From positions 1 through 46,637 of the forward strand of contig JAVEDJ010000239.1 in assembly GCA_030841025.1 (NCBI GenBank): a stretch of DNA of 46,637 nt, given 5' to 3'. The stretch is from Actinomycetota bacterium. Its GTDB lineage: Bacteria; Actinomycetota; Actinomycetes; JACCUZ01. The notes beneath the pieces were generated by a model. The model saw only the letters and a program-made list of their open reading frames with translations, was not told the DNA's origin and made no database searches. The position numbers and the translations under genes were made by a program. Positions within the stretch are counted from its first letter, which is position 1. Every line of letters begins with the position of its first letter. Below are positions 24,779 to 41,644 of this stretch, in pieces.

Positions 24779-24812
24779 GAACGTGTGACGGGCACGGTCA
24801 TGTCAAGCACGG

Positions 24813-25073: not shown

Positions 25074-25074
25074 G

Positions 25075-26352
25075 TCAGACGGTCGCGTCGTGGTGCTCGG
25101 TATCGCTGGCCGGAAGGCTCTTCTCTGCCTCTTCGAACAGTCGGAGCACGTCCTGCGCGATCGGACTGTAACGGCACTGTCCCATGGTCAGGAACTCGTA
25201 GCGGAAGCCTGCTCCGGTGCCGAACTTCTTCTTCTCCTGCGGCAGCGTGATGCAGTCGTTGATGCTCTCGTCGCGCACCACGCCCAACGGGTCCTCGCCG
25301 TCCTCGACCTTGTCCAGCTGCTCCTGGAAGAGGCGGCGCAACATGATGACGCCGAGGTCGGACTTGCCGAGATGCTCGTTGGAGCGGTCGGCGATGGCCC
25401 CTTGGCTCGCCCACGCCATGACGTCCTGGCCGTCGACGAAGTCGACGAGGAAGTCGCCCTTCTCGTCGTAGATCGGGACCTCGAACAGCGGGATCGAGTC
25501 CTGCGGCGGCACGGTGTAGTCGCCGTCAGGCTTGTAGACGTCGTACCAGAAGTGCGAGGTGTGGGTGTCGTCCACGGGGACCCGGATCTGGAACTGGTAG
25601 TGACCGCCGCCCCCGACCCGCAGCATCGCGGGGAACACCAGCGGGTGCCCCACCTTCCAGTCCTCGTCCTCCTCGGTCATGCCTTCGAGCACTCGCCGCT
25701 TGATGATCCCGTAGTCGAAGACGTCAAAGGCGACCTTCTCGTGCTTGCGCATCAGCACCTCGGCCTGCGCCTCGCCCGAGATGCCACGCACGAAGTTCAT
25801 GTAGTGCCCGTGCAGCCACTCGACGTGGTGCGGGTCGACGGAGTTCTCCATCACCTGAAGCCAGTTCATCGGCAGCAGGGCATGGCCCACGTCGCGCAGG
25901 CAGTTGTCCCAGACGAACAGGTCGAACCTCGGCAGCAGCGGCGCTGGGTCCTCACCCATGTAGACGAAGATCAGGCCGCCGAGCTCCTGGGCCTGGTACG
26001 TAACGGCCTGGATGCGGTCCTTGAACGTGCTGTCCGCGGGCTCCGCCGGCTGCTCGAGGCACTTGCCGTCCATGCCGTAGAGCCATCCGTGGTAGCCGCA
26101 CCGGATGCCGCGCTCCTCGACGATCGCGTAGCGCATCGAGGCACGGCGGTGCGGACACTGGGCCTCGATGACACCGATCTCGTCGCCCTTGCGGTACAGC
26201 ACGATGTCCTCGCCCAGCAGCCGGCGCTGGATCGGCTCTGGGCCGAGCTCTGACGTGGCGGCGAGGGGGTACCAGTAGTGACGGAGCAACGTGCCCATCG
26301 GCGTGCCCGGCCCTACCTGGGTCAGCCGCTCGTTCAACTCGGTCGTCAGCAT
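25075..26352 (-). CDS. Rieske [2Fe-2S] non-heme-iron oxygenase, single-subunit phthalate-family type
   Basis: 'CPHRRASMRYAIVEERGIRCGYHGWLY' Rieske CxH...CxxH. 'NWLQVMENSVDPHHVEWLH' mononuclear-iron motif. No beta-subunit gene is adjacent. Confidence 0.9.
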   Translation of the reverse strand: MLTTELNERLTQVGPGTPMGTLLRHYWYPLAATSELGPEPIQRRLLGEDIVLYRKGDEIGVIEAQCPHRRASMRYAIVEERGIRCGYHGWLYGMDGKCLEQPAEPADSTFKDRIQAVTYQAQELGGLIFVYMGEDPAPLLPRFDLFVWDNCLRDVGHALLPMNWLQVMENSVDPHHVEWLHGHYMNFVRGISGEAQAEVLMRKHEKVAFDVFDYGIIKRRVLEGMTEEDEDWKVGHPLVFPAMLRVGGGGHYQFQIRVPVDDTHTSHFWYDVYKPDGDYTVPPQDSIPLFEVPIYDEKGDFLVDFVDGQDVMAWASQGAIADRSNEHLGKSDLGVIMLRRLFQEQLDKVEDGEDPLGVVRDESINDCITLPQEKKKFGTGAGFRYEFLTMGQCRYSPIAQDVLRLFEEAEKSLPASDTEHHDATV

Positions 26353-26397
26353 CTCCGCGCCTTTCTGTTCATCGAATGTCCTACGGCCGGTACAACA

Positions 26398-27249
26398 TCA
26401 GCTGAAGAACCCGGCCACGTGCCGCTGGAAGTCCTCTGCCCGTTCGATCTGCGTCCAATGCCCACACCGGTGGAAGACCACCAGGTCCGCGGACGGCAGA
26501 ATGTGCAGCAGCCGCTGGCTGGTGGCTTCCAGGGGAATGATCTGGTCGTCGCGGCCATGGATCAGGAGCGTCGGGGTCTGGATGCTCGCCAGCTCGTCCT
26601 CGGTGAGCGCCATCGCCGTGATGTGGCGCTGACGTGGGGCGGCGAAGGCCGTGGCGTAACGCTCCTGGACGTCACCTACCTCGGTCGCCCGGAAACGCAG
26701 CTCGATCAGCTCGTCGGTCACGAGGCCCTGATCATAGGCGAACAGTCGCATGAGGGCGGCCATGTTGTCGTGGGAGGGCGTGTAGCCCCAGACCCGGTCC
26801 AGCCCTTCCGTGATCGGGAAGTCGATGCCGACAGCGCCCATCAGGACCATGCGGCGGATCCGCTCGGGATGGCGGTGCGCCAGCGCGAGGGCGAGCGCGC
26901 CGCCCATCGAGTTGCCCACCACATCGACCTGGTCCAGGCCCAGCGCGTCGAGGAAGCCGAGCAGGTGCCGGACCCGGGTGTCATGGTCGAGCTCGACACC
27001 GTCCGCCGCCCGCGTCTCGCCGAAGCCCACGACGTCGGGTGCCAGGAGCCGGCGGCCGTCAGCCAGCGGGGAGCGCATCAGCCCCTGCCAGTTGGCCCGA
27101 CCGGACACGCCTGGCCCCGACCCGTGGATCAACAGGACGGGCGGCCCGTCCGAGACCCCCGACTCGAGGTAGTGGGTGTCGAACGGGCCGTGCTGGACCC
27201 GGTCCTGCCGAAGGTCGTCGACGGCCGGCGTCGTGGAGGTGGCGGTCAC
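26398..27249 (-). CDS. alpha/beta-fold meta-cleavage-product hydrolase (XylF/DmpD/BphD-like)
   Basis: 'LLIHGSGPGVS', 'GNSMGG' nucleophile elbow and 'HRCGHWTQIE' catalytic His region. Confidence 0.85.
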   Translation of the reverse strand: MTATSTTPAVDDLRQDRVQHGPFDTHYLESGVSDGPPVLLIHGSGPGVSGRANWQGLMRSPLADGRRLLAPDVVGFGETRAADGVELDHDTRVRHLLGFLDALGLDQVDVVGNSMGGALALALAHRHPERIRRMVLMGAVGIDFPITEGLDRVWGYTPSHDNMAALMRLFAYDQGLVTDELIELRFRATEVGDVQERYATAFAAPRQRHITAMALTEDELASIQTPTLLIHGRDDQIIPLEATSQRLLHILPSADLVVFHRCGHWTQIERAEDFQRHVAGFFS

Positions 27250-28319
27250 GTACTCGGGTGATAGGCCGCGAAGACCTTGTTCGAGTTGAAGATGCCGGTC
27301 TCGGCGAAGTTCGACCAGGCGGGGACCTTCTGACCCAGCGCCTCCATCGCGCCCAGCAGCGGGAACCAGTTCAACAGCTCTTGCTGTCCTGCTCCCTCGA
27401 TCTCCTCCAACGACGTGGATCGCCAGGCGTCGAGGTCACCGCTGGTCATGGCGTCGTACAGCCGCCGGTCGCTGGGGGTGTCCGGTCGCAACCGCCAGGT
27501 GCGGTCGCAGATGAAGGCGTGCGACCAGCTCGACGAGGCGAGCAGCGCGATCCGCCAGGGCGACTCGGCACAGATCCGACCGACCTCGGCGCCGACGTCC
27601 ATCAGCCGAGCCGGCGTCGGGGAAGGCGGGTCCAGCTCGCGGATGTCGTCGAAGGGCGCCATGAACCCTTGGTAGCTGACCACACGACGGCCGTAGCAGT
27701 TGATCGGGAACGGTACGACGGGGTAGTCGAACCCCCGGCGGTGGTAGTCGAGGTAGAGCACGGCGTTGAGGAACGCGTGCGGCAGGCCGGGGTGGTGCAG
27801 CTGCTTGTAGGCGTAGGCCACGTCGACGCCACGGCCCATCAGCTCGGACACGATGTGCTTGCCGATGTCCGGGCGTCCCTTGACCGTGAACGCGGTATCG
27901 CCGCTCTCGCCCCAGACGTTGGGCCGACCCTTCATGTCGGAGGACTCCGCAGCGTGTGCCCAGGGGCGGACCTCGATGTCGTCGTAGGCCAGCACGGCGT
28001 ACGGCGGGATGAGGTCTTCCTTGAAGTTCTCGTACTGGTCGTCGCCCCAGATCACGATGGCATCGGGCTGGAAGTCATCGATCGCCGCACGGACGTCCTC
28101 GAAGCCCTTGATCAGCGCCGCCCGGTGGTCGGCCGCCGCGGCGCGGCCCTCGTCATCGGCCCATTCACGCCTGGCGATCTCCGGCCAGTTGGCGACGTCC
28201 TTCTCCGCCTCCGGGATGCCGGGATCCTCGAGGATGCGGCGCAGGATGCCCGCCATGTCCTCGTCGAGCCCGCTGAACGGGGGGTAGTGGGACAGCCCTA
28301 CGCCGAGAACCTCACCCAT
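27246..28319 (-). CDS. class III (LigB-superfamily) extradiol ring-cleavage dioxygenase, single polypeptide
   Basis: 'GVGLSHYPP', 'VIWGDDQYENF' and 'SSSWSHAF' resemble MhpB/LigB-type blocks. ATG 28319 has GGAGG 7 nt upstream. The 15-codon upstream extension was rejected. Confidence 0.75.
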   Translation of the reverse strand: MGEVLGVGLSHYPPFSGLDEDMAGILRRILEDPGIPEAEKDVANWPEIARREWADDEGRAAAADHRAALIKGFEDVRAAIDDFQPDAIVIWGDDQYENFKEDLIPPYAVLAYDDIEVRPWAHAAESSDMKGRPNVWGESGDTAFTVKGRPDIGKHIVSELMGRGVDVAYAYKQLHHPGLPHAFLNAVLYLDYHRRGFDYPVVPFPINCYGRRVVSYQGFMAPFDDIRELDPPSPTPARLMDVGAEVGRICAESPWRIALLASSSWSHAFICDRTWRLRPDTPSDRRLYDAMTSGDLDAWRSTSLEEIEGAGQQELLNWFPLLGAMEALGQKVPAWSNFAETGIFNSNKVFAAYHPST

Positions 28320-28480
28320 CTGCGTACCTCCGATCCGTCCGGTCGTGCCGGGAGTGATCGCCACCGTAAGTCGGTTCGTGAACTATCGTCAAGAGAAACT
28401 ATTTAAACTCGGAACCAAGACGTCGCCCTCAGCACCCCCCGGGCGGTACCGTGACGTGGTTGCACGAAGGAGGCAAAACG
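28320..28480. promoter_or_regulatory. divergent promoter region between the extradiol-dioxygenase operon and the MarR-decarboxylase operon
   Basis: Locally AT-rich island 'gttcgtgaactatcgtcaagagaaactatttaaactcggaac' with GTTC-n2-GAAC and repeated AACTAT, in otherwise high-GC DNA. Confidence 0.5.
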
Positions 28481-29056
28481 GTGTCACATCAAGGGCGCGC
28501 ACGCACGGAGGCCGATTCGACGACCGGAGAGGGCGACCCGGCGTCGACCGTGCCGTGGCAGGTCTCTCGTGCGGCAGCCGAACACGGAGCGGACTTCGAC
28601 CCGAGCGTCCTGTCGCTCACGCTGACCCTCTACCGCGCCATGTCCGCGTTCGACCGGGCCGGCCAGGCCGAGCTCGCCCCACACGGGCTGAGCGTGAGCC
28701 AGCTCAACATCCTGACCGTTCTGCACCGGGCCGACAGCCCGCTGACGATGGGCGAGCTGGGCCACGCCGTGTCCGTTCGCCCCGCCAACCTCACCAGCGT
28801 CGTGGACGCGCTGACCCAGCGCTCACTCATTGAGCGGCGGGTCAACCCCGGCGACCGCCGGTCCTATCTCATCGCGAACACGCCTGCCGGCGACGACTTC
28901 CTGGTGCGCTTCCTGCCGAGCCACTGGCGCTACCTCGAGACCTTGACCAGTGACCTGAGCAGCGAGGAGCGCATGCTGCTGACCGATCTGCTCGAGCGCC
29001 TCCGCGTCTCCGCCGAGGCTGCTCCCGGGAGCGAGCCCGTCCGGATGGCCGAGTGA
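28481..29056 (+). CDS. MarR-family transcriptional regulator
   Basis: 'LSVSQLNILTVLHRADSPLTMGELGHAVSVRPANLTSVVDALTQRSLIERRVNPGDRRS' winged HTH. GTG 28481 follows AAGGAGG. Confidence 0.8.
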   Translation: MSHQGRARTEADSTTGEGDPASTVPWQVSRAAAEHGADFDPSVLSLTLTLYRAMSAFDRAGQAELAPHGLSVSQLNILTVLHRADSPLTMGELGHAVSVRPANLTSVVDALTQRSLIERRVNPGDRRSYLIANTPAGDDFLVRFLPSHWRYLETLTSDLSSEERMLLTDLLERLRVSAEAAPGSEPVRMAE

Positions 29057-30066
29057 GCGCATCGCCCGTCGGTTCGGGGGCGCCCCGTGTCGACGTCCAC
29101 ACACATGCCATCCCGCCGCAGCTCCCTCGTCTCGCGGAGCGGTACGCCGGGTCCTGGCCCTCACTGGTCGCGACGGGCCCCTGCACCGCAGACCTGCTGC
29201 TGGGCGAGGACTTCTTCCGGGCCCTCGACGACCGCTGCTGGGACGCCCGCCGGCGCATCGAGGACATGGACGCCGAGCAGGTGGCGGTCCAGGTCGTCTC
29301 GCCGATCCCCGTGACGTTCTCCTACCGGCTGCCGGCCGACGGGGTGACCGAGCTGGCCCGCGTGCAGAACGAGTGGATCGCCGAGCTCGTGCGCGACACC
29401 CCGGACCGCTTCGTCGGACTCGGCACCGTTGCGTTGCAGGACCCTGCGGCTGCCGCCAGCTCGGTCATCGAGTGCATCACCACGTTCGGGCTGCGCGGCA
29501 TCGAGATCGGCAGCAACGTCGATGGGCTGGCCCTCGACGACCCGGCGCTCGAGGACTTCTGGGCCGCCTGCGCCGACACCGGAGCGGTCGTGCTCGTGCA
29601 CCCATGGCAGGTTCTCGGCGAGGAGCGGCTCGGGCGGCACGGACTGCTCTACTCCGTGGGCATGCCCGCCGAGACAGCTGCCGCTGCCGCGACGCTGATG
29701 CTCGGTGGTGTGTTGGACCGCCACCCCGCCCTCCGCGTCGTGCTCGCGCACGGCGGCGGCGCTCTGCTGGCGATGCTGCCGCGTATCGAGCGGTGCCTCA
29801 CGATGCTGCCGGGCATGACACCGCCTGCACTCGCACCGCGCGAGTACTTGCGCCGGTTCTGGTACGACTCGCTCGTCTACGACCCGGGCACCGTTCACTC
29901 GCTGGTGCGGGCCGTCGGTGCCGACCGGGTGATGGTCGGCAGCGACTATCCCTTCCCCATCGCCGAGCGACCCGTCGGCAGCGGCGTCCTGGCCGCGGGC
30001 TTGGCCGACGAGGAGCAGACCGCGGTCCTCACCGGGACTGCGGCCGACCTGTTCGGCCTTCGCTGA
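29053..30066 (+). CDS. amidohydrolase_2 / ACMSD-family non-oxidative decarboxylase
   Basis: 'VDVHTHAIPP' HxH, 'CWD...RIEDMD...VQVVSPIPVTFSY', 'VLVHPW' and 'GSDYPFP' are collinear with ACMSD-type enzymes. GTGA overlap with the MarR stop. Confidence 0.8.
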   Translation: MSASPVGSGAPRVDVHTHAIPPQLPRLAERYAGSWPSLVATGPCTADLLLGEDFFRALDDRCWDARRRIEDMDAEQVAVQVVSPIPVTFSYRLPADGVTELARVQNEWIAELVRDTPDRFVGLGTVALQDPAAAASSVIECITTFGLRGIEIGSNVDGLALDDPALEDFWAACADTGAVVLVHPWQVLGEERLGRHGLLYSVGMPAETAAAAATLMLGGVLDRHPALRVVLAHGGGALLAMLPRIERCLTMLPGMTPPALAPREYLRRFWYDSLVYDPGTVHSLVRAVGADRVMVGSDYPFPIAERPVGSGVLAAGLADEEQTAVLTGTAADLFGLR

Positions 30067-30075
30067 GCCGAACCC

Positions 30076-31071
30076 TCAGACCTTCGCGTCGGTCAACGTG
30101 GCCGGGAGGAACAGGTCCGCCGGGTCCAGTGGCCGGGACGTGAACCCCTGCTCGTGGGCGTAGCGCAGCAGGGTGGTCAGCGCGGCCCGGTTGGCATCCA
30201 CGCCGTAGGCGAAGGCATCGCCCAGCAGCGCGGCCTCCTCCTCGGCGTACGCCGACTCCCAGACCAGCGAGGAGAAGCACACCGCGGAGTCCCGCAGGGC
30301 TGGGCCGGCCTGGGCCCGGGCGACCTCGAAGGCGTGCCGCAGGTTGTTGGCGATCCAGGGGTGCTCCTCGACGAGCGCCTTCTTGAGCACCACGACATGC
30401 ATCAGCGGGATGATCCCGGTCTTCTCGAAGAAGCCGCGCTCCTCTGCGCGGTAGTCGGGAAAGACTCGCCGGATGCGCCGATCGCCCTTGAGGAAGAGGG
30501 TCGGTGGTCGAGCGGTGATGAGGGCGTCGATGCCACCCTCCAGCAGCTGATCGGTCAACGTCATCGACGCATCGATCGGGTCCACCCGGAACCGGCTCGG
30601 CGGCGTCACCCGTGACTTCTCCTGGCGCCCGGGCTCCTCCAGCCCGCCGGTGCGCCAGTGGACGCTCTCGAGATCGAGCCCGTAGTGCTCGCCGAGGAGG
30701 CCGCGCATCCAAAGCGATGCGGTCATGCTCCACTCAGGCGTGCCGATCGAGCGCCCCGACAGGTCGTCCGGGCGCTGCACGTCGGAGTCGGCGCGGACGT
30801 AGAACGCCGAGTGACGAAAGGCGCGGGAGGGGAAGACCGGGATCGCGCAGAAGGGACCGTCCGCCTGCTCGACGCCGGCGATGAAGGCCCCGAAGGAGAA
30901 CTCGGCCGCGTCGAACTCGCCGTACCTCCCTTGACGCCAGAACAGCTCCTCGATGCCGGTCTGCAGGTAACGCAGATCGACGCCCTCCACCTGCACGTCG
31001 CCGGTGTACAGCGCCCTCGTGCGGTCATAGACCGCACCGGCGTAGGTGACTGGAACGGGGCGACGGGTCAC
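30076..31071 (-). CDS. 4,5-dihydroxyphthalate-decarboxylase-like protein (cytoplasmic NMT1/SsuA-fold)
   Basis: 'YDRTRALYTGDVQVEGVDL', 'FCAIPVFPSRAFRHSAFYVR' and 'WRTGGLEEPG' fit my recollection of the Pht5/OphC family. No signal peptide. GTG 31071 with an AGGAG RBS. Confidence 0.65.
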   Translation of the reverse strand: MTRRPVPVTYAGAVYDRTRALYTGDVQVEGVDLRYLQTGIEELFWRQGRYGEFDAAEFSFGAFIAGVEQADGPFCAIPVFPSRAFRHSAFYVRADSDVQRPDDLSGRSIGTPEWSMTASLWMRGLLGEHYGLDLESVHWRTGGLEEPGRQEKSRVTPPSRFRVDPIDASMTLTDQLLEGGIDALITARPPTLFLKGDRRIRRVFPDYRAEERGFFEKTGIIPLMHVVVLKKALVEEHPWIANNLRHAFEVARAQAGPALRDSAVCFSSLVWESAYAEEEAALLGDAFAYGVDANRAALTTLLRYAHEQGFTSRPLDPADLFLPATLTDAKV

Positions 31072-31105
31072 GGGGCAGCTCCTGCGTTGGTGGTGAGCGG
31101 TGGTG

Positions 31106-32062
31106 TCAGGCGAGTAGGAGGCCGGCAACGCCGGCGAGGATCAGTAGGCCACCCACGGCCGTCCGGCCGGTCACCGCTTCCTTGTTCTTGAGCAGGAGGA
31201 CACTCGCGGGGATGACGAAGACCGGCAGCGCAGCGGACACCACCACACCGACGGCGATGGGGATGTGCCGAGTCGCTGCCATGAGGCAGACCTGGGCGGA
31301 GATGGTGAGCACGCCGGACAGGGTCCAGAGCCAGATGCCGATCCGGTCGGCGCCCCGCACGGCCTCGACGACGCTGCGGACCTTGGTGTGCAGCACGAGG
31401 TAGGCCAAGGTGCCCGCGACCGCGCCGACGAAGCCACCCAGGATGGGTTCGTTCCAGTCACGCACCCCGCTGCTGCGCACGACGTTGCCGACCGCGTAGG
31501 AGAAGGCACCGATGAGAGCGAGAGCCACCTCGCGTTTCGGCAGTCCGTCGAAACGGGCCACCGACCGGTCGCGCTCGACGTCCGGCGGCCGGGTGCCCTC
31601 CCCGTCCGCCCCCACCGCGACGGGCACCTTGCGCGCGACGGGGACCCGCGTCGTCAGGTAGAGCCCGACGAGCACAGCGGTGATGAAGGCGATGGCGGAC
31701 GGGCCGAGTACCTCATCGAGGAAGATCCAGCTGATGACGCCGGCGAACACGGGGTTGGTGATCTGCAGCGACGCCGCACGGGACGGACCGATCGACTGCA
31801 CCGACAGGAAGAAGAGCCGACGACCGAAGTACGACGTCAGCAGACCGCCGATCGCGAACATGGCCAGCGGGGCCCACTGCACTTCGATCCCTCGACCCAG
31901 CACGGCGTGCTGGCCCAGGACGAGCAGACCGGAGAACACCACGTTGCTTCCGAGTGCCAGCAGGAAGCCGATGTTATGACCGAGCCGTGGTCCCGCAACC
32001 GTGACCACCAGGACGTTGCAGCTGAACAGGAGGAGCGAAAGGAGGGCAAGCGCCTCACCCAT
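31106..32062 (-). CDS. DMT/EamA-family membrane transporter
   Basis: About 10 hydrophobic segments in two EamA-like halves. The start overlaps the upstream stop by 8 nt. Confidence 0.8.
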   Translation of the reverse strand: MGEALALLSLLLFSCNVLVVTVAGPRLGHNIGFLLALGSNVVFSGLLVLGQHAVLGRGIEVQWAPLAMFAIGGLLTSYFGRRLFFLSVQSIGPSRAASLQITNPVFAGVISWIFLDEVLGPSAIAFITAVLVGLYLTTRVPVARKVPVAVGADGEGTRPPDVERDRSVARFDGLPKREVALALIGAFSYAVGNVVRSSGVRDWNEPILGGFVGAVAGTLAYLVLHTKVRSVVEAVRGADRIGIWLWTLSGVLTISAQVCLMAATRHIPIAVGVVVSAALPVFVIPASVLLLKNKEAVTGRTAVGGLLILAGVAGLLLA

Positions 32063-33692
32063 GCCGGCTGCCCACCGACTCCGTTCCGCGTGCCAGCACG
32101 CCGCTCCCAGAGACCGCCTGGGGCGGCGCGTCGAACAACAGGGACTTGATGATGACGGGCACGACGCCGGCAGGGCGGATCAGCTCGCCGATGTCGACAT
32201 AGTCGAACTCCTCGAGGCGTACCCCGTCGAGGCAGACCACAGGCTGCTGCACGCCGAGCTCCTCGGTGAGGAGGCGGCCCAGCGATCGAGCAAGGTCTCC
32301 GTCGAGCAGCACCACCAGGGGGTGACCGGCCGCCAGGTGCTCCGCGAGACCAGCGACCAGGCCCTCGGCGAGGGCGCGCAACCGCCGGTACTCGGGGTCA
32401 CCCGACCAGTGCAGCGCCACGGCAACCGGCTGACCTGCGTCCTCGACGTCGAACCGGCGGGCGGCAGCAGCGACGGCGTCGGCCACCGCAGCCGGCTCGA
32501 AGTCACCCTCGAGCGAGACCCGCGGGAACAGCACGGGAAGGTTGCGCACCGGCAGGATGTCGGCGCCGGAGAGCCCCACGGTGTTGCCGCTCACCTGTAC
32601 CGAGAACTGTGACGCGCCGATCACGGTAGCTCGGATATGGGCGCGGGCCTCCACGACCTCCATGTCGAGCCGGCCGGCGTCGAATGCCGCGCGCAGCTCT
32701 GCCGCGAGGCTCGGTGCCACGTCGCCGAACGTTTGCGACTCGCGGCCGTAGAAGTACTCCGCGACCCCACCGGAGAAGCTGACGACCTGGGGGCGCGCGG
32801 ACGGTGGCCGGTCGTCGACCAGCAACAGGTCGGCGGGGTACGACGCGGGCACTCCACCCTCGTCGATACAGCCCACGAGGACATCGACGAACGAACGTAC
32901 GAGCCGTTGCTCATCGCCCTCGCTGAGCTCCTCCCCCAGCGCGAGGGGGATGCCGGCCGCCTGCGCGACCTCCAGGGCCGGGCCCTCGACACGCACCACG
33001 CGACGACCGTCCAGAGCGACCAGCCGGCCTCCGACGGCTACCGCCGCCGTCCCCAGGATGGCCCCGTCGGCGATCAGCGCGAGCTTTGCCGTCCCTCCGC
33101 CGACGTCGACGTGGAGCCGGACTCGTGGGTCCTCGCGGCTGTCGGCCACGGCTCCTGAGCCGTGAGCGGCCATCGCCGCCTCGAGGTGGTGCCCGGCCGA
33201 GGCGCAGACGAACGTCCCGGTCTCCGTCGCGAACAGGTCGGCAATGGCCCGGGCGTTGCGTCGCTTGAGTGCCTCACCGGTCAGCACCACCGCTCCGGTG
33301 TCGATGGAGGTGCGTTCGACCCCAGCCTCGACGTAGCACTCCTGCACGAACTTCCCGAGGACATCGGCATCGATGCTGTTGTCGGGAAGGTAGGGCGTCA
33401 GTACGACCGGCGAGCGCCACACGACCTTGCGGTCGACGACGACGAACCGGCTCGAGAGGCCCTGGGCCAGGCGCTGCATGTGCACCCGGGCGAACATGAG
33501 GTGTGACGTGGACGAGCCGATGTCGATGCCCACCGTGTCGAGCTGGACGTTCTCGACGTCCCAGTACTCCTCCGGCTCCTGGCTCGGGTCGCCGACCCCG
33601 TCCGGCTCGTCCTCGTCGTGGTGGTGATCCGGAAAGTGAATCTGGTCCAGCGAGATGGAGGACTCGCCGTGGGAGTGGCCGGAAGACGTCAT
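32055..33692 (-). CDS. EutA-family (ethanolamine ammonia-lyase reactivase-like, ASKHA-fold) ATPase with His/acid-rich N-terminal extension
   Basis: 'VGIDIGSSTSHLMFAR', 'DTGAVVLTGEALKRRNA', 'FVCASAGHHLEAAMAAHGSGA', 'LPVRNLPVLFP' and 'VVPVIIKSLLF' are collinear with E. coli EutA as I recall it. ATGA overlap with the bicupin stop. Confidence 0.7.
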   Translation of the reverse strand: MTSSGHSHGESSISLDQIHFPDHHHDEDEPDGVGDPSQEPEEYWDVENVQLDTVGIDIGSSTSHLMFARVHMQRLAQGLSSRFVVVDRKVVWRSPVVLTPYLPDNSIDADVLGKFVQECYVEAGVERTSIDTGAVVLTGEALKRRNARAIADLFATETGTFVCASAGHHLEAAMAAHGSGAVADSREDPRVRLHVDVGGGTAKLALIADGAILGTAAVAVGGRLVALDGRRVVRVEGPALEVAQAAGIPLALGEELSEGDEQRLVRSFVDVLVGCIDEGGVPASYPADLLLVDDRPPSARPQVVSFSGGVAEYFYGRESQTFGDVAPSLAAELRAAFDAGRLDMEVVEARAHIRATVIGASQFSVQVSGNTVGLSGADILPVRNLPVLFPRVSLEGDFEPAAVADAVAAAARRFDVEDAGQPVAVALHWSGDPEYRRLRALAEGLVAGLAEHLAAGHPLVVLLDGDLARSLGRLLTEELGVQQPVVCLDGVRLEEFDYVDIGELIRPAGVVPVIIKSLLFDAPPQAVSGSGVLARGTESVGSRHG

Positions 33693-34774
33693 CCCCGGGT
33701 GGCCACGAAGTCCTGCATGCGCATCTCGGCCCCGGACTTGGCCAGCTCCTTGGCGTAGAGCTCGTGGATCTCAGGCCTCTGGTCCTCGTACTCGATCTGC
33801 CGGCCGCCGTCCTTGAGGCTGACGTCCATGCCCATGAACGTCTTGCGCTTGTCCTCTGTGAACGGATAACGCAGCCCGCCGAAGGCCACCGCGAGGTAGC
33901 GCGCGGGATCAGGGCTGGTGTTGAAGTGCTGGTGGAACATCCTGTCCGGTGGCGCATAGAAGACGCCATGGCGCCAGTCGACGCGGTGGAAGTCCGTGTC
34001 GCCGTCGTACCACAGCAGTGAGTAGCCGTGGCCCGTCACCGCGTAGACATGGAAATCCGCCCCGTGTCGGTGACCCTTCTTGTACGTGCCGACCGGCATC
34101 TCGGAGATGTGGGCGTGCATCGTACCGTCAGCCAGCACGAACATCATGTTGCTACCGCCGGCACCACGAGCAGACCACTTCTGCAGCTCGAAGGACGCGA
34201 GGTCCGGGACGAAGTTGGTCTCCCACATGTGACGACCAGGCCGCATCGGGATGAAGTCGCCGTCACCCGAGAAGTGCTTCTCCGAGCCGACCCGCTCATC
34301 GAAGGACCACGGGTTGTCAAAGACGAACCGCTCGTTGTGGTACAGGTTGAGGGTGATCGGCGCGCTCGTGGTCGACGCCATCCGCGCCGGCTCCGAACCG
34401 CTCGCGTTGAAGTGGCGGTAGCGCGCGTTCAGCGGCAGCGCGAAGAGGCTCTTGGGGCCCCACTCGAAGCTGTGCTTTGTCCCGTCGGCGGCCTCGATGG
34501 TGGTGCTGCCGGTGCCGCTGAGCACGTAGACGACCTCTTCGTAGAGGTGCTTCTGCGGCTCCGTGCTGGTTCCCGGCGCAAGCTCGATGACCACGACATT
34601 GATGGAGTCGCCGCGACCCTTGAGATTGACGAACGCCGCGTCGGCACCCAGCCGAGCCCACGGCGCGGTCTCGACGGCGAGGAGGTCCACACCGAAGTCC
34701 TCGACGACGGGCACCCCCTCGCCCTTGACCCACTCGAGGTAGCTGTCAATCAGGAACTTCGGCTCTTCAGACAC
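33689..34774 (-). CDS. bicupin protein (gentisate-dioxygenase-like fold), function unknown
   Basis: The N-cupin 'PGTSTEPQKHLYEEVVYVLSGTG...FEWGPKSLFALP' has only one His of HxH. The C-cupin 'GTYKKGHRHGADFHVYAVTGHG...FHQHFN' has a full HxH...H motif. Confidence 0.65.
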   Translation of the reverse strand: MSEEPKFLIDSYLEWVKGEGVPVVEDFGVDLLAVETAPWARLGADAAFVNLKGRGDSINVVVIELAPGTSTEPQKHLYEEVVYVLSGTGSTTIEAADGTKHSFEWGPKSLFALPLNARYRHFNASGSEPARMASTTSAPITLNLYHNERFVFDNPWSFDERVGSEKHFSGDGDFIPMRPGRHMWETNFVPDLASFELQKWSARGAGGSNMMFVLADGTMHAHISEMPVGTYKKGHRHGADFHVYAVTGHGYSLLWYDGDTDFHRVDWRHGVFYAPPDRMFHQHFNTSPDPARYLAVAFGGLRYPFTEDKRKTFMGMDVSLKDGGRQIEYEDQRPEIHELYAKELAKSGAEMRMQDFVATRG

Positions 34775-34849: not shown

Positions 34850-35692
34850 TCACAGGGCTACTGGCACCTCGGGCTTGGGTGCGTGCAACAGACCCCAGAT
34901 TTCCCGGCTGAGCTCAGCGATCCGGTCGCTCTGCTGGAACTCGGCGCCACGCGGGTGCTTCTCGTCGACCTCGTAGACCTTGACGAAGCGGCCAGGGTTG
35001 CTAGCCATCACAAAGACCCGGTCAGCCTGGAAGATGGCCTCGCGGATGTCGTGCGTGATGAAGATGGTGGTCGTACCGATCTCGGAGACGACCTTCTGCA
35101 GGTCGCGCTGGAGCTTCTCCCGGGTCTGTGCGTCCAGAGCGCTGAACGGCTCGTCCATCAGCAGCACCGACGGCTGGATCGCCAGCGCCCGCGCGAGGTT
35201 GACGCGCTGCTGCATGCCACCGGAGATCTGCGAGGGGTAGTAGTCGGCGAACTCGGTCAGGTTGGTCAGCTGCAGCAGCTGGGCGACCCGCTCCTTGCTC
35301 CCGTCCTTGCCCGGCGGCCGGTTCGGCGTGTCCTTGAGCACACTGAGGTCCAGCCCGAACGCCACATTGCGCTGCACCGTGCGCCATGGGAACAGCGATG
35401 CCTTCTGGAAGACGAAGCCGGTAGCGACCTTGCCTGGCGCCTGTCCGTCCACCAGGACCTCGCCGCCGTCGTGCTCCTCGAGGCCTTGGAGGATCCGCAG
35501 CAGCGTCGTCTTGCCACAGCCGGACGGACCGACGATCGAGACGAACTCACCCGGGCGAACGTCGAGCGACACTCGGTCGAGAACGGTGAGTGTTTCCCCC
35601 TTGGGGGTGGCGTAGTGCTTGGACAGCTCCCGGACGACGACGCCTCCCGACGAGGTCGTCTGCGTCTGATGCTCGGTTGAGTTCGTCGCCAT
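34850..35692 (-). CDS. ABC transporter ATP-binding protein (NitT/TauT, SsuB-like)
   Basis: Walker A 'GPSGCGKTT', signature 'ISGGMQQR' and Walker B 'LLMDEPFSALD'. ATG 35692 abuts the permease stop. Confidence 0.9.
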   Translation of the reverse strand: MATNSTEHQTQTTSSGGVVVRELSKHYATPKGETLTVLDRVSLDVRPGEFVSIVGPSGCGKTTLLRILQGLEEHDGGEVLVDGQAPGKVATGFVFQKASLFPWRTVQRNVAFGLDLSVLKDTPNRPPGKDGSKERVAQLLQLTNLTEFADYYPSQISGGMQQRVNLARALAIQPSVLLMDEPFSALDAQTREKLQRDLQKVVSEIGTTTIFITHDIREAIFQADRVFVMASNPGRFVKVYEVDEKHPRGAEFQQSDRIAELSREIWGLLHAPKPEVPVAL

Positions 35693-36615
35693 CACGTCTG
35701 CCCCTTCACTTCGACCTGCCACGGGGTGAGGTACTTCTGCAGGACTCGCAGGGCGAACGTCAGTCCGACCCCGAGTGCGGCGAGGATCAAGACCCCGACG
35801 AACACGTTCGCGGTCTGGAACAGCTGCGACGAGGTGAGGATGAGGTAACCCAGCCCTGCTTGCGCGCCGAACAGGTCGGCGACCACGATGCCAACCAGTG
35901 CGCGGGCCAGAGCGAGTCGCAACCCGGTGAAGATGTAGGGCATCGCACCCGGCAGGTCGATGCGACCGAACACCTCGCGTTTGTTGGCTCGGAAGGCGAT
36001 CCCGACCTCGCGCAGGTCTCGCTCGACCGCATGCACGCCGTCGATCGTGTTGATGATGACCGGGAAGAACGCCACCAGCGCGATGATCGCGACGTGCGCC
36101 GGGTCACCGAAGCCGAGCCAGATGACGAAAAGCGGCGCCAGGGCCACGCTGGGCGTGGCATAGAGCGCGGTGAGCCATGGATCGCCGTAGTCGTGGGCCC
36201 GCCGGCTAGCTCCCATCCACAGCCCGAGCGGAATCGCTATCGCCGCTGCGACGAGGTAACCGAGCAGGAACTGACGCATGCTCACCGAGAAGTGGTGCCA
36301 CAGCTCTCCGGACTTCGCGAGCGTCCAGAAAGCAGAGGGAATGGCACTGGGAGCCACGATGATGACGGTGCTCGGCTGGAAGATCCGGACAGCGGCCTCC
36401 CAGACCGCGAGCACCACCACCACCGACACGATCCCGCGGATGAGCGAGCGCCGGCGTACCTTCGCACGCTTGACCTTCTCGCTCTCCACGATGTGCACCG
36501 GCTGAGGCGTCGTCTGCCGCGGCGTCTCAGCCGGTCGGTAGTCAGCCTCTGCTGGCCCCCCACCAGTCCGGTCGGCGCCCGCGGAGGCGCCGGGCCGTGC
36601 CAGTTGTTCAGCCAT
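35692..36615 (-). CDS. ABC transporter permease (NitT/TauT, SsuC-like)
   Basis: Six hydrophobic segments and the EAA-like loop 'AFRANKREVFGRIDLPGAMPYIFTGLR'. Confidence 0.85.
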   Translation of the reverse strand: MAEQLARPGASAGADRTGGGPAEADYRPAETPRQTTPQPVHIVESEKVKRAKVRRRSLIRGIVSVVVVLAVWEAAVRIFQPSTVIIVAPSAIPSAFWTLAKSGELWHHFSVSMRQFLLGYLVAAAIAIPLGLWMGASRRAHDYGDPWLTALYATPSVALAPLFVIWLGFGDPAHVAIIALVAFFPVIINTIDGVHAVERDLREVGIAFRANKREVFGRIDLPGAMPYIFTGLRLALARALVGIVVADLFGAQAGLGYLILTSSQLFQTANVFVGVLILAALGVGLTFALRVLQKYLTPWQVEVKGQT

Positions 36616-36671
36616 TCGCGTATCGCTCCCTTGTCCCGATCGGAGTCACCGCTCCTGGGCCCGGCGGTCGG

Positions 36672-37751
36672 TCAGCTGCCCTTCGGCGGGTCTGTCTTCA
36701 GGCTGTTCTGCGCGTCCTCGAGGTAGGAGTTGTCGATGGTGCTCGACGCGTCGATCTTCTTCTTCAACGCCCCGAACTCCACGAACGCGTCGGCCGCCGT
36801 CTGCAGGGCTGCGGGGTCGACCTTCGCGTCCTTGGGCATCGACTTGCTCTTGCCGCTGAGGAAGATCTCGTCGATCGCCCGCTCGACGTACGGCTTGTCG
36901 ACCTTGATGCCCGCGGCCACGATGTCGGCGATCTTGTCCTTCATCGCGGGGTCGTAGAGGGCGTCGATGGTGCGCTGGTAGGCGCGCAGGAAGCGGCGCA
37001 GCTCCTCCTTGTGCCCATCGGCCCACTTCTTGCTCACCGTGATGACGGCTCCCGACAGCGGCGGGGCACCGAGGTCGTTCGTGTTACCGAAGTCCTTGAA
37101 CCCTTCGCTCTCACTGGCCTGGTAGTTGACCGGGATGCCGAGCGGAACTGCCTTGACCTGGCCTGCCTGCAGCGCGGCGAACCGCTTCGAGCTGCCCCCG
37201 GCGACGATGAACTTGAGGGACTTGGGGTCCACCCCGTTGGCGGCGAGCGCCTGCCGGGTCGTCACGGTGCTGATGGACTGCAGCGCGGAGACACCGATGG
37301 CCGCGCCCTGCAGCTGCTTGATGTCCGTGATCCCCTTGGCGGCCACGAGGTTCCAGATGGAGGTGTTCGACCCTGCGGCGATGAAGCGCAGGTCAGCACC
37401 TTGCTCGTTGGCGCTCAGGCCTTCGGGCCCACCGTTGTAGAGGTCGATCGACCCACCGATGAGGCCCTGTACGGAGTTGGCCGTGCTCTCACCGACCGTG
37501 ACGTTCACCTTGAGGTTCTCGTCCTTGAAGTAGCCAAGGGCTTCGGCGAGCTGCGGGTAGTAGGTCTGGATGACCAGCGACTGCACGCCCATGTTGAGCG
37601 TCAGTTGCTTGTCGGCGGCAGCCGAGCTGCCGGAGGAGGACGACTCTGTGCTGCTCGAGCCGCCACAGGCCGAGGTACCGGCGAGCAGGAGCGCAACTGA
37701 CACCACGGACAAGACACGGGTGTTTCCCCGTTGACCAAAAATGCGACGCAC
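36672..37751 (-). CDS. ABC transporter substrate-binding lipoprotein (NMT1/SsuA-like)
   Basis: Signal/lipobox-like 'VALLLAGTSACGG' followed by a Ser-rich linker. GTG 37751 with GGAG upstream. The N-terminal 45 codons of the ORF were rejected. Confidence 0.8.
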   Translation of the reverse strand: MRRIFGQRGNTRVLSVVSVALLLAGTSACGGSSSTESSSSGSSAAADKQLTLNMGVQSLVIQTYYPQLAEALGYFKDENLKVNVTVGESTANSVQGLIGGSIDLYNGGPEGLSANEQGADLRFIAAGSNTSIWNLVAAKGITDIKQLQGAAIGVSALQSISTVTTRQALAANGVDPKSLKFIVAGGSSKRFAALQAGQVKAVPLGIPVNYQASESEGFKDFGNTNDLGAPPLSGAVITVSKKWADGHKEELRRFLRAYQRTIDALYDPAMKDKIADIVAAGIKVDKPYVERAIDEIFLSGKSKSMPKDAKVDPAALQTAADAFVEFGALKKKIDASSTIDNSYLEDAQNSLKTDPPKGS

Positions 37752-37973
37752 CGGCAACTCACTCCATTCATGGAAGGGTGGCGAGCGGAGCCTCGTGGTC
37801 GGGGACTGCCCCACTTTAGGCTCGTGCTGTGTCGAGCGCCACATTTCTACCTTGTTACCCTGACTATTAGCAAGAAGGATTGTCAATTTTCGTAGTAACT
37901 TCGCTGATACAGAGAGTCGCCGCGACGGCGACCGCTGTCCGATCGCCCACGACGGCCCGAAAGGTGGTTCGGC
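37752..37973. promoter_or_regulatory. divergent promoter region between the ABC-importer operon and the MFS gene
   Basis: AT-rich island 'attagcaagaaggattgtcaattttcgtagtaac' and a hairpin GTCGCCG-cga-CGGCGAC (37916-37932) in the MFS leader. Confidence 0.5.
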
Positions 37974-39378: not shown

Positions 39379-39663
39379 TCAGCTCGGCACGAAGTCCTCG
39401 CCCACCGGCACGACCTCGGTGTGGAACGCGACCGCGCACCCCGGGCAGATGTACTGCCGGAACACGACATCCGTGTCGACGAATGCCCGCGAATCCGTGA
39501 AGATGTGCGGCCCGGCCGCGTCGACCGTCGTCTCGTAGAACGGCAACTTCGAGACGTAGTCCGTCGGTCCACCCTCCAGCGACTGGTCGCAGTGGGCACA
39601 GAAGATGCTGCCGTCCTCCCTGCGGAGCACGTTCTCGTTGAGCCGCCTGCCGGACGTGGTCAT
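39379..39663 (-). CDS. small acetone-carboxylase-gamma-like zinc-binding protein
   Basis: 94 aa with 'CAHC' and 'CPGC' pairs. ATGA overlap with the HyuB-like stop. Its position matches the gamma subunit in the acxABC order. Confidence 0.6.
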   Translation of the reverse strand: MTTSGRRLNENVLRREDGSIFCAHCDQSLEGGPTDYVSKLPFYETTVDAAGPHIFTDSRAFVDTDVVFRQYICPGCAVAFHTEVVPVGEDFVPS

Positions 39664-41636
39664 CGTGACTCCTTCGCGAGCTCGCGGCGCTGCTCTTTGA
39701 GCTGACGCCGGTGCTCTTCTGTCGCTGCCAGATCTGCCTCGCCGGACTCCGCGAGCACCACGCCGTAGACCGCTCTGGCGCTCTGCTCGGTCACCCGGAA
39801 CTCACCCACGTCGTGCGCAACTCGGGCAGGCTCGCGTAGCAGGGGGTCGCCGTAGCCGCCGCCGGACTGCCATGACATGTAGTGCACGTCGGTGGGTGAC
39901 AGCAGCACCTCGTCCTCGCAGGCGAGCAGGTGCTGCTCACCCGTGATCTCGTCCAGGGACGACGGGATGATGCCCTTGGCGAACAGCTCCTGCACATTGG
40001 CGCTGCGCATCGCGATGTCGGCCTGGCTGCTCCCTGGGTAGCCTCCGGCGAGTCCGGGGTTCATCGGGATCGACTTGCCGGACCCGGACACCACCTGCAT
40101 CATCGGCACCGGCGTGTCGTGCGGCACGAAGCACAGCGAGGCCGTGACGCCGCCACGGAACCGTCCGGGACCACCGCTGTCGGGCTCCTCACGTCGCCAC
40201 AGATACAGCATCGGCAGCATGAACTCGTTCATCTCCACGTCGGGCATCTTGCCCATCGGGATGAGCAAGAGCCCGGCCGTGTCCACGCCATCGTGGTCGT
40301 TGCCGGCGCCGAAGCCCGCACCCATGGAGTCGGTGATCATCGTGGCGAACGGGTTGCCGCGTTGGTCCAGCCCGGCCATGACGCACAGGTCCCACGTGCC
40401 GCAGCAGACCGACTGCACGTCCTTGTTGTGCTCGACGCTGGTGTCGAGCATCTTGGACAGGCACTCGGTCGCGGCGTTCGTCGTCGCCCAGGCCGACGCC
40501 ACCGATCCCTTGCCGACACCGGAAGGGAAGGTGGCGTTGTTCAGGGTCCCCTCCTCGGTCTTGAAGGTCAGGCACCGGCGCAGACCGCCGGCTGCCCAAG
40601 GGATGTCGCCGCACAGCACCGGGAGCACCGCGGACATGACCCCGCCGTAGAGGCCGGTGAACGTGCAGTTGATCATGCCGGACTGGGGACCCGTCCCGGT
40701 GAAGTCGAACTCCAGGTCGGTGCCTCGCTTGGTCAGCGTGCAGACGATGGGGTGAACACCTCGGTCGTCCTTCATCGACTGCTCCTGGTAGCTCACGGCT
40801 TTCCAGGTTCCGTCCTCGATCTTCTCCAGCTTGGCGCGCAGCCGGCTCTCCGCGTCGTCGAGCTGACGCTGCATGGCCGCCTTGACCGTCTCAGCGCTGT
40901 AGCGCTCGATGAGCTGGCGGATGCGCTCGTGTCCGACCATGTTGGCGCCGAACTTCGCCCGCAGGTCGAGGGCCACGAGCTTGGGCACGCGAGAACGCCG
41001 TACGTAAAGGTCCTCAACGTCCTGGCGCAGCTGGTACTTCTCGGCGATCTTGACGGGTGGCGTGGGCAGCGACTCCCAGAAGACGTCCTCCGCGCGTGGC
41101 GTCCAGCTGCCGGGTGACACGCCGCCGAGGTCTGCCTGGTGGGCGACCGCACAGGTCCATGCGAACAGCTCGCCGTCGTGGAACAACGGTGCGAACAGCG
41201 CCACGTCGTTCTGGTGCAAGCCACCACCCACCCAGGGGTCGTTGCACAGGAACATGTCGCCTTCGTGGATGCCCGGGTTGATCGAACGATGCTCGAGGAT
41301 CCACTTGATCGCGAGGTCCGTGGAGGCCACGAGCTCGGTGTTGTAGGGGCCCACCTGTACGACGTCGCCGACCTCGTCCGTGATGGCGACGTCGAAGTCG
41401 TTGCAGTCGGTGACCACCAGGGAGCCGGACATGGCCTTGAGGGCCTGTCCCATCATGTCGGTGATCGCCCAGAGCCGGTGGCGGATCACCTCGTAGGTGA
41501 GGGCGTCCATCTTCTCGACTGCCTCGGGGCTGCCCCGGTGCAGCACGAGCGAGTCGGGTAGCGATGCGAGAACTTCTTCGGGGGTTCGGATCCGGCTGGC
41601 GAAGACCTCGGAGCCGGGTACCTGCATGAAGGGCAT
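39660..41636 (-). CDS. hydantoinase B/oxoprolinase-family subunit (carboxylase alpha-like)
   Basis: 'CNDPWVGGGLHQNDV' and 'GGGYGDP' Hydantoinase_B blocks. ATG 41636 with an AGGAG RBS 5 nt upstream. The upstream 56 codons were rejected. Confidence 0.85.
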   Translation of the reverse strand: MPFMQVPGSEVFASRIRTPEEVLASLPDSLVLHRGSPEAVEKMDALTYEVIRHRLWAITDMMGQALKAMSGSLVVTDCNDFDVAITDEVGDVVQVGPYNTELVASTDLAIKWILEHRSINPGIHEGDMFLCNDPWVGGGLHQNDVALFAPLFHDGELFAWTCAVAHQADLGGVSPGSWTPRAEDVFWESLPTPPVKIAEKYQLRQDVEDLYVRRSRVPKLVALDLRAKFGANMVGHERIRQLIERYSAETVKAAMQRQLDDAESRLRAKLEKIEDGTWKAVSYQEQSMKDDRGVHPIVCTLTKRGTDLEFDFTGTGPQSGMINCTFTGLYGGVMSAVLPVLCGDIPWAAGGLRRCLTFKTEEGTLNNATFPSGVGKGSVASAWATTNAATECLSKMLDTSVEHNKDVQSVCCGTWDLCVMAGLDQRGNPFATMITDSMGAGFGAGNDHDGVDTAGLLLIPMGKMPDVEMNEFMLPMLYLWRREEPDSGGPGRFRGGVTASLCFVPHDTPVPMMQVVSGSGKSIPMNPGLAGGYPGSSQADIAMRSANVQELFAKGIIPSSLDEITGEQHLLACEDEVLLSPTDVHYMSWQSGGGYGDPLLREPARVAHDVGEFRVTEQSARAVYGVVLAESGEADLAATEEHRRQLKEQRRELAKESR

Positions 41637-41644
41637 GGGATCTC

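Follow-up and report, generated by a model that had tools for sequence, protein, structure and literature searches.

What does a protein of the EutA family, named for the reactivation of ethanolamine ammonia-lyase (EAL), do where no such enzyme is encoded? The question is raised by a contig of an Actinomycetota bacterium (GenBank assembly GCA_030841025.1, contig JAVEDJ010000239.1), analyzed over its whole stretch of 46,637 nucleotides and called the window here. In it, the gene of a EutA-family ATPase with the ASKHA (actin/Hsp70-like) fold follows directly upon the gene of a protein with two cupin domains (bicupin). Here, we report strong support for the view that bicupin and ATPase form a true module of two proteins, which is conserved without dependence on eutBC, B12 enzymes, or microcompartments. 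The pair is probably an uncharacterized case of an ATP-driven helper that loads or repairs a metalloenzyme.

The junction of the two genes (Table 1) reads ...GGGG ATGA CG, with the ATG of the ATPase over the TGA of the bicupin; the bicupin itself starts with GTG and has GGAGAGGA in front. Coordinates, reading frames, minus strand, and ATGA overlap, as given in an initial annotation of the window, were all correct when the open reading frames (ORFs) and the junction were read. An ATGA overlap by itself is commonplace; what goes beyond chance is the recurrence of the pair in 75 of 80 species genomes. These come from a pattern scan of one genome per species, which found 558 genomes with a bicupin relative; the best 80 loci were fetched (loci are cited by L numbers), and pairing was counted by tblastn with the window ATPase (a gene caller based on GC3 missed the ATPase in 22 loci). 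A EutA-like homolog lay downstream of the bicupin on the same strand in those 75 loci and directly adjacent to it in 65, while in 9 a second, paralogous bicupin stood between bicupin and ATPase (e.g., L024, 11112 to 12212). The order, bicupin and then ATPase, was fixed across Actinomycetota, Alphaproteobacteria, Chloroflexota, Dormibacterota, and Acidobacteriota. Nine further loci, obtained by looking up exact metagenome proteins (seven look-ups) and from one plasmid record, carried the pair in the order of the window (L001, L002, L004, L085 to L087, L089, L090, and L092), and a tenth (L091) ends early in the ATPase gene. Junctions were tight, with overlaps of 1 to 14 nucleotides (nt) or gaps of at most 19 nt, in L001, L002, L004, L085, L086, L087, L090, and L092. 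An older paralogous pair was found in L028 (bicupin 41% and ATPase 43% identical to the window proteins), and over 48 pairs the divergence of the bicupin tracked that of the ATPase (r = 0.92; 0 of 2,000 Mantel permutations as high).

The pairing does not depend on the usual partners of EutA. With Escherichia coli EutB and EutC as queries, tblastn returned no match in the window and 87 loci (88 sources, 1.5 Mb in total). Pfam annotation of the window genes contained no B12 or shell-protein families, and the 25 commonest Pfam families of the flanking ORFs included no B12-binding or microcompartment family; the context of a EutA reactivase (eutB/eutC or an adenosylcobalamin-dependent enzyme, and microcompartment genes) was thus not found. 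The initial annotation had reported none of these genes in the window, which tblastn and Pfam bear out. It had proposed looking for co-occurrence in a fixed order without eutBC, as now seen in the 75 loci, and had named a nearby eutBC with an unconserved pairing as grounds for refutation; none turned up in the 88 sources, and the pairing is conserved. One cupin-fold protein, EutQ (PF06249), does share an operon with canonical EutA (PMC12487888; E. coli locus), but EutQ is small, consists of one cupin, and has roles as an acetate kinase and in shell binding, whereas the bicupin has no PF06249 match and is found without eut genes.

The pair occurs in at least 558 species-level genomes, and in thousands of metagenomic sequences, often in aromatic- or carboxylic-acid catabolic islands. 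Cultured carriers are Pseudonocardia acidicola, Phyllobacterium zundukense, and Sinorhizobium spp. A search of plasmids recovered only four rhizobial replicons and no characterized cluster, and a literature search of very limited reach found no published description of a bicupin/EutA-like pair, so that its novelty is provisional.

The EutA assignment of the initial annotation, with its proposed check against PF06277, held: the ATPase scored 377.9 bits (cut-off, 27), with residues 51 to 520 aligned to positions 3 to 474 of the 475 in the model. It is 34% identical to E. coli EutA (b2451; L088) (E = 9e-69; residues 50 to 520 against 5 to 465). The motifs DIGSSTS, DVGGGT, SGGV, and TGEA are invariant in 51 to 55 ATPase homologs and common to E. 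coli EutA. Invariant D57-IGSSTS, D196-VGGGT, and S307-GGV, together with the fold matches of the AlphaFold2 (AF2) model (predicted local distance difference test [pLDDT], 75; Foldseek matches to Ppx/GppA, MreB, PilM, HgdC, and EutJ), place it in the ASKHA superfamily. A sequence search of the PDB returned no EutA structure, and neither bicupin nor ATPase has a close solved structure.

With EutA, the ATPase thus has in common the whole homologous ASKHA core, the nucleotide-binding motifs, and a gene next to the partner enzyme on which it presumably acts. It differs in adding a His/acid-rich extension of about 50 residues (N-terminal, in some relatives C-terminal) and in the residues H64, H71, and H168, which are invariant in the subfamily, and C163, which is near-invariant (at least 90% of homologs; the sole conserved Cys); the corresponding four residues of E. 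coli EutA are Q, E, P, and V. Its partner is a bicupin, with no eutBC, B12, or microcompartment genes, and it failed all four NCBIfam EutA equivalogs, NF007991 to NF007994 (best, 315.3 bits against 598; the other three, 208 to 245 bits against cut-offs of 769 to 952). Judged by sequence, it is therefore a distant, bicupin-linked EutA subfamily and not an EAL reactivase equivalog, since neither the equivalog models nor the genomic context fits one. PGAP and JGI nevertheless annotate its homologs as "ethanolamine ammonia-lyase reactivating factor EutA," and the bicupin is publicly "hypothetical," "gentisate 1,2-dioxygenase," or "mannose-6-phosphate isomerase-like"; these names are very likely wrong for this subfamily.

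The extension at the N terminus of the ATPase, which the initial annotation had described as a His/acid-rich addition to canonical EutA, was confirmed by alignment: the Pfam and NCBIfam EutA models begin at ATPase residues 49 to 53, residue 5 of E. coli EutA corresponds to residue 50, and the addition amounts to about 50 amino acids (aa). Of its 54 residues, 6 are His and 15 are Asp/Glu; an "IHFPDHHH" motif comes before an acidic stretch and W44, and disorder is predicted (pLDDT <50, residues 1 to 44). Among 117 ATPase homologs, the median extension was 52 aa with 11% His, against 3.2% in the whole proteins. Related motifs (MHDLEF[DE]HxH, DH[HE]G, and FPDHHG) recur across phyla, in the forms IHFPDHHH or VIHDHHAE in Actinomycetota, LRFPDHHG...H.H in Chloroflexota, and MHDLEF[DE]H[LIM]H in Alphaproteobacteria; an acidic stretch and then an almost universal W..[ED]NVE[LM]TTVG come after them. 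Some Rhodospirillales homologs have C-terminal HD-repeat tails with up to 14 His (e.g., DHDHHHGHSHDHDHSDGQDHGHTHD). Disordered, His-enriched tails are thus present in most, not all, ATPase homologs. The recurrence of the tail, mostly at the N terminus, fits the suggestion of the initial annotation that the ATPase metallates or repairs its partner.

The bicupin belongs to a distinct and highly conserved family (about 70% identity across phyla). More than 6,900 homologs were found, of which the best 120 listed, from several phyla, are all at least 69% identical to the query; library-wide, its representatives formed 2,012 clusters at E ≤ 1e-3 and 339 at E ≤ 1e-30. Its AF2 model (pLDDT, 85.7; predicted template-modeling [TM] score, 0.88) has two beta-barrels, and Foldseek aligned about 320 columns with probability 1.0 to OxdC, MncA, vicilins, YxaG, and gentisate dioxygenase (GDO). 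These are generic bicupins only (oxalate decarboxylase, MncA, vicilin, quercetinase, GDO), at a TM score of about 0.48 and 14 to 16% identity: the two-barrel fold is common to the metalloenzymes GDO (3bu7), OxdC (1j58, 1uw8), MncA (2vqa), and YxaG (1y3t), from all of which the bicupin is this distant. None of these four enzymes is known to need an ATPase partner. The best PDB profile match was the C-terminal barrel of GDO (E = 7e-4, about 70 residues), which aligns with the C-terminal "HRH...H" motif; a single-sequence search gave E = 0.004 for 3bu7. No NCBIfam dioxygenase model was passed (5-aminosalicylate dioxygenase matched in part, with 23.8 bits against a cut-off of 650), and no family-level match to gentisate 1,2-dioxygenases spanned both domains. 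By its sequence matches, the bicupin is in the cupin superfamily and in none of the characterized ring-cleaving families tested.

Ligand-like residues are present in both barrels of the core family. The N-terminal domain has "PQKHLYEE" (Q74, H76, E79/80, and H121), and the C-terminal domain has "GHRHGADFH...FHQHFN." As candidate His/Glu metal ligands, cupin motifs 1 and 2 offer H235-x-H237-x4-H242 and H281 in the C-terminal domain and Q74-x-H76-x2-E79 and H121 in the N-terminal one. Invariant in alignments A1 and A2 are H220, H222, Y231-K232-K233, H235-R236-H237, H242, W267, H269, H281-Q282-H283, and N285. Paralogs of 41 to 53% identity keep H222, Y231-K232-K233, H235-R236-H237, H242, W267, H281-Q282-H283, N285, and R292-Y293, and in the N-terminal barrel they have Q74 replaced by E or V, H76 by Q, and H121 by L or I. 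Because the N-terminal residues vary in these paralogs and the C-terminal His cluster does not, the alignments put the predicted catalytic metal site in the C-terminal barrel (H235, H237, H242, and H281). The initial annotation had read the motifs in this way, with a His cluster kept only by the C-terminal cupin and "QKHLYEE" in the N-terminal one; that reading stands, although the Pfam Cupin_2 model scores the N-terminal barrel (62 to 132) and not the C-terminal one. About half of the positions in residues 300 to 320 (LRYP..K..G.DV) are invariant in A1 (L301, R302, Y303, P304, K309, G315, D317, and V318), and the segment is modeled at a pLDDT of only about 50; since it is at once invariant and of low model confidence, it is a candidate partner interface that may become ordered on binding. 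No cupin-EutA fusion was found among the 150 best bicupin representatives at 50% identity.

How, then, might the ATPase serve the bicupin? Tentatively, and short of confidence, we favor the reading that it is a dedicated ATP-dependent activase of a non-heme metal bicupin, acting by metal insertion, metal exchange, or reactivation. With the help of ATP, EutA opens EAL and thereby lets a damaged cofactor be exchanged, and the E. coli protein is an experimentally established ATP-dependent reactivase. Protein-directed, ATP-driven reactivation or cofactor exchange is, to our knowledge, the only characterized function in the EutA family. The activase reading is drawn from this family function, from the disordered His/Asp-rich tails, from the invariant His cluster of the partner, and from the strict, context-independent pairing. 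By analogy, the ATPase would act on the bicupin enzyme rather than on a substrate. ATP binding and hydrolysis would open or remodel the bicupin, into which the correct metal could then be inserted, or from which a wrong or oxidized metal or a dead-end ligand could be removed, with the flexible His/Asp-rich segment at the N terminus (in some lineages, the C terminus) serving as an arm that holds and hands over metal. Once activated, the bicupin would catalyze a step that depends on oxygen or metal. Ring cleavage or oxidative decarboxylation is the most plausible, with a hydroxylated aromatic acid or another carboxylic acid as the substrate, which the adjacent carboxylate transporters would import and the neighboring decarboxylases would trim; a role of the bicupin in the catabolism of such acids is probable. 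We infer physical interaction of the two proteins, metal handling, and direction of action, and likewise the identity of metal and substrate. Reactivation of EutBC by EutA and EutT has been described (PMC12487888).

Accessory proteins of other metalloenzymes offer a functional parallel. Nucleotide-hydrolyzing helpers with His/Asp-rich segments stand beside their enzymes in the UreG/UreE, HypB/SlyD, CooC/CooJ, and COG0523 (nitrile-hydratase activator) systems, and metallochaperones such as UreE, HypB, and CooJ typically have His-rich tails. The likeness would be one of function only, as those nucleoside triphosphatases (NTPases) are P-loop GTPases or ATPases whereas the ATPase here is of the ASKHA type and not a P-loop protein. 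Some distant bicupin relatives carry Tat or Sec signals (P0274, P0358, P0308, and P0316). In one of them, P0274, the cupin itself bears a His-rich stretch just behind the signal peptide, and P0316 has an internal His/Asp-rich insert of 45 aa and has lost the HRH and HQH motifs; His-rich segments therefore accompany this cupin family, on either the ATPase or the cupin. Exported relatives could not meet a cytoplasmic ATPase, and the stretch on P0274 would speak for an activase.

Several points weigh against this reading. All NTPase metallochaperones known to us are P-loop proteins and none is an ASKHA protein. The His motif is not universal, and a minority of homologs, including those of Streptomyces, have no His at all in the extension. 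Translational coupling implies about equal amounts of the two proteins, and such a ratio would be no less fitting for a subunit than for a helper. Four of the 80 bicupins have no EutA-like gene within 10 kb and retain all key residues; conversely, one EutA-like gene (L094) has no bicupin within 8 kb, and another (L095) has one only 6 kb away. These unpaired cases mean that the ATPase may have other clients or that the bicupin may work alone. In this reverse direction the association is looser: of three EutA-like genes looked up, only that of Streptomyces (L093) has a bicupin nearby, two genes upstream.

The strongest competing explanation, though an unlikely one in our view, is that ASKHA protein and bicupin are obligate subunits of one ATP-consuming enzyme, in which ATP hydrolysis or phosphoryl transfer would drive carboxylation, decarboxylation, ring activation, or the opening of a lactam or other ring. 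The analogs are HyuA/HyuB-type hydantoinases, 5-oxoprolinases, and acetone and acetophenone carboxylases, which likewise join an ASKHA module to a metal-binding catalytic protein. Stoichiometric subunits fit the strict adjacency, fixed order, stop-start overlaps, and co-divergence, and non-oxidative (de)carboxylase-type genes are frequent neighbors (PhtD-like, Aldolase_II/PhtC-like, Amidohydro_2, UbiD, and thiamine pyrophosphate [TPP] enzymes). H64, C163, and H168, moreover, seem to fall within or beside the phosphate-1 loop and the ASAGHH strand, conserved ASKHA segments of a type that should line the nucleotide cleft in ASKHA kinases. The ATPase, however, shows no Pfam or NCBIfam relation to HyuA, and its partner is a cupin rather than HyuB. 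The 4 bicupins lacking a nearby ATPase keep their catalytic residues, the ATPase of L094 occurs without a bicupin within 8 kb, and two bicupin paralogs share a single ATPase in 9 loci. Disordered His-rich tails would be unusual on a catalytic subunit, and the family function known to us is directed at proteins.

A sequence of pathway enzymes, in which the EutA-like protein is a small-molecule ASKHA kinase and the bicupin an isomerase or lyase acting before or after it, we regard as improbable. The model is inositol catabolism, where IolB (a cupin isomerase) and IolC (a kinase) are followed by an aldolase. Class II aldolase/adducin proteins, most members of which act on phosphorylated sugars, do recur near the pair, with TPP enzymes and HIBADH-like or zinc-dependent alcohol dehydrogenases (Zn-ADH) (L086, L089, L091, L002, and L004), and the Zn-ADH of L089 has scyllo-inosose 3-dehydrogenase as its best NCBIfam match, below the cut-off. 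Identification of the recurrent TPP enzyme as IolD-like was not supported: its best NCBIfam match was PRK08327, below the cut-off, and no IolD appeared among the 25 matches shown. Against a pathway, too, the neighbors vary and the pair does not; genes of the Rieske, LigB, FAD monooxygenase, and ring-hydroxylase types mark several contexts as plainly aromatic; and His-rich tails and the invariant His cluster would be left unexplained. We know of no EutA-family member that is a kinase.

More doubtful still is an ATP-dependent electron-transfer activase resembling HgdC, BcrAD, or BadFG, which would pass a low-potential electron to its partner and so reduce an oxidized catalytic metal, as from Fe(III) to Fe(II). 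Ring-cleaving dioxygenases with Fe(II) are well known to suffer oxidative inactivation, Foldseek matched HgdC, and Pfam BcrAD_BadFG shows weak similarity (E = 0.0033; 17.4 bits against a cut-off of 31.5). Yet an HgdC-type bridging [4Fe-4S] cluster, which takes two Cys per monomer, is impossible with C163 as the one conserved Cys, and Pfam counts of the flanking ORFs revealed no ferredoxin or flavodoxin gene consistently adjacent. Hardly credible, last, is the idea of an ordinary EutA that works for a B12-dependent enzyme with its genes elsewhere and whose place beside the cupin means nothing. The PGAP and JGI label speaks for this idea; against it stand the failed equivalog cut-offs, the absence of eutB/eutC from 1.5 Mb of loci and of B12-binding or microcompartment families from the 25 commonest flanking Pfam families, and the co-diverging bicupin pairing in 75 of 80 genomes across phyla.

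Should the ATPase be an activase, the bicupin-linked EutA subfamily might, at a rather low level of confidence, be without precedent as an ATP-driven metallochaperone or reactivase of the ASKHA fold that serves a non-B12 metalloenzyme. The general task of the EutA family would then be the ATP-powered opening of a partner for the exchange of its active-site content, cobalamin in EAL and a metal ion in the cupin. EutA-type activation or repair would reach beyond B12 enzymes to the very large superfamily of cupin metalloenzymes, which could solve mis-metallation with a dedicated ATPase, and a member of the actin/Hsp70 fold would join the metallochaperones, otherwise P-loop proteins. Thousands of genes labeled "ethanolamine ammonia-lyase reactivating factor" would be misnamed, and a bicupin expressed alone may give an inactive enzyme.

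The surroundings of the pair vary. In 137 ORFs within two genes of it, ORF clustering and Pfam counts revealed no dominant family; the commonest, MmgE/PrpD, MFS_1, and MarR, accounted for only 9 of 137 each. The sole frequent third partner is a PhtD-like (4,5-dihydroxyphthalate decarboxylase-like) homolog, present within 10 kb in 33 of 80 loci at about 33% identity; of the transporter/decarboxylase context proposed initially, this part recurs and the other neighbors differ from locus to locus. Transporters near the pair (TctABC, TRAP, and NMT1-type ATP-binding cassette [ABC] importers) point to imported carboxylic acids. An NMT1-type importer before the pair is not general (7 to 16 of 80 loci; also in L002, L003, and L087), and EamA was found in only 6 of 80 loci, with L087 placing it as in the window. 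A Rieske oxygenase with a GFO oxidoreductase, suggested as a general partner by L094, L095, and the window, was rejected, as it occurs in 4 to 5 of 80 loci only. Rieske, LigB, FAD monooxygenase, and ring-hydroxylase genes give an aromatic-catabolism context in the window and several other loci, and L085 and L090 have the pair among unrelated genes.

Particular loci add the following. In Rhodospirillales L024 (9980 to 13820), a tandem bicupin duplication precedes a single EutA-like gene, an arrangement often seen with a long His/Asp tail; tandem bicupins also occur in L021, L037, L054, L055, L062, L063, L082, L083, L091, and L092, and the Rhodospirillales paralogs are about 65 to 69% identical to the window bicupin. 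The plasmid of P. zundukense (L089; NZ_CP104971.1, 11929 to 16461) has the bicupin as a "hypothetical protein" and the ATPase as "ethanolamine ammonia-lyase reactivating factor EutA," flanked by TctABC, a TPP enzyme, a HIBADH-like reductase, and a class II aldolase, with a putative metal transporter (YjbE/TerC family) two genes downstream. L085 and L090 (8500 to 13900) are syntenic and from one alphaproteobacterial lineage; upstream of the pair are a glutathione S-transferase (GST) and a metallo-beta-lactamase-fold gene, and downstream are two proteins of about 118 to 131 aa and 274 to 276 aa with no Pfam match, with no catabolic genes nearby. In L094 (1 to 17665), the EutA-like gene (58% identical to that of the window) comes after a GFO oxidoreductase gene, with three Rieske LigXa_C-type oxygenase genes and a second GFO gene around it, a hint that other metalloenzymes may also be clients of the ATPase subfamily. 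L046 and L048 have near-identical gene order and ORF coordinates around the pair, as far as compared; one of the two genomes is labeled Alphaproteobacteria and the other "uncultured Flavobacteriales," and the contig of the latter is probably mis-binned.

In the window, the pair belongs to a seven-gene minus-strand operon of ABC importer, bicupin, EutA-like ATPase, EamA, and PhtD-like genes, which agrees with its initial placement between an ABC importer and a DMT transporter with a PhtD-like gene. The EamA gene also overlaps the PhtD-like gene, extending the coupling downstream. A promoter and terminator scan of the operon gave nothing above shuffle expectation, and no N-terminal signal-peptide-like hydrophobic segment was seen in the PhtD-like protein when its sequence was read by eye.

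Table 1. Features of the 46,637-nucleotide window and of the two paired proteins
Feature	Position	Strand	Basis or remark
Bicupin, 361 aa	33689..34774	-	ORF; Pfam Cupin_2 residues 62-132; AF2 two-barrel model
EutA-family ASKHA ATPase, 545 aa	32055..33692	-	ORF; Pfam PF06277
ATGA stop-start overlap of bicupin and ATPase, translational coupling	33689..33692	-	Sequence read
Predicted metal/active-site region of C-terminal cupin, residues 220-285	33920..34117	-	Alignments A1 and A2
N-terminal extension of ATPase, residues 1-54, His/acid-rich	33531..33692	-	Outside EutA hidden Markov models and E. coli EutA
EamA/DMT transporter	31106..32062	-	Pfam EamA; start over ATPase stop, overlap ATGGGTGA
PhtD-like (4,5-dihydroxyphthalate-decarboxylase-like) protein	30076..31128	-	Presumably cytosolic, binding-protein fold; weak Pfam Phosphonate-bd and NMT1 matches
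NMT1/SsuA-type ABC importer	34850..37886	-	Pfam and NCBIfam; upstream, in operon with the pair
Importer substrate-binding protein	36672-37886	-	Part of NMT1/SsuA-type ABC importer
Importer permease	35692-36615	-	Part of NMT1/SsuA-type ABC importer
Importer ATPase	34850-35722	-	Part of NMT1/SsuA-type ABC importer
Pyr_redox_2 reductase	21765-23087		Aromatic block
GFO/Idh/MocA oxidoreductase	23519-24778		Aromatic block
86-aa ORF, possibly ferredoxin	24813-25073		Aromatic block
Alpha-only Rieske oxygenase	25075-26352		Aromatic block; relatives with LigXa_C
Alpha/beta hydrolase	26398-27249		Aromatic block
LigB-type extradiol dioxygenase	27246-28364		Aromatic block
94-aa ORF, may be small third subunit	39379-39663		Beside HyuB-like gene
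HyuB-like	39660-41804		Overlaps HyuA by 160 nt as listed
HyuA-like	41645-43777		Hydantoinase/acetone-carboxylase-type
Heparinase II/III-like protein	3896-5899		Polysaccharide cluster
HisKA_3 histidine kinase	10664-12199	+	After polysaccharide cluster
HisKA_3 histidine kinase	12874-14475	-	After polysaccharide cluster

An aromatic-acid catabolic block (21765 to 31128) adjoins the pair and also holds MarR, Amidohydro_2 (LigW/ACMSD-type), and PhtD-like genes; it resembles pathways of the phthalate 4,5-dioxygenase or dehydrodivanillate type. On the other side, genes for hydantoinase/acetone-carboxylase-type ATP-dependent enzymes occupy 39379 to 43777, where the true start of the HyuB-like ORF is probably an internal Met, given its overlap with HyuA as listed. 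Acetone_carb_G and HyuA also lie about 8 kb from the pair in L087. Further away in the window, a polysaccharide cluster (468 to 10751) contains genes for an NAD-dependent epimerase/dehydratase, two GT4 glycosyltransferases, a GT28-like protein, and a UDP-glucose/GDP-mannose dehydrogenase.

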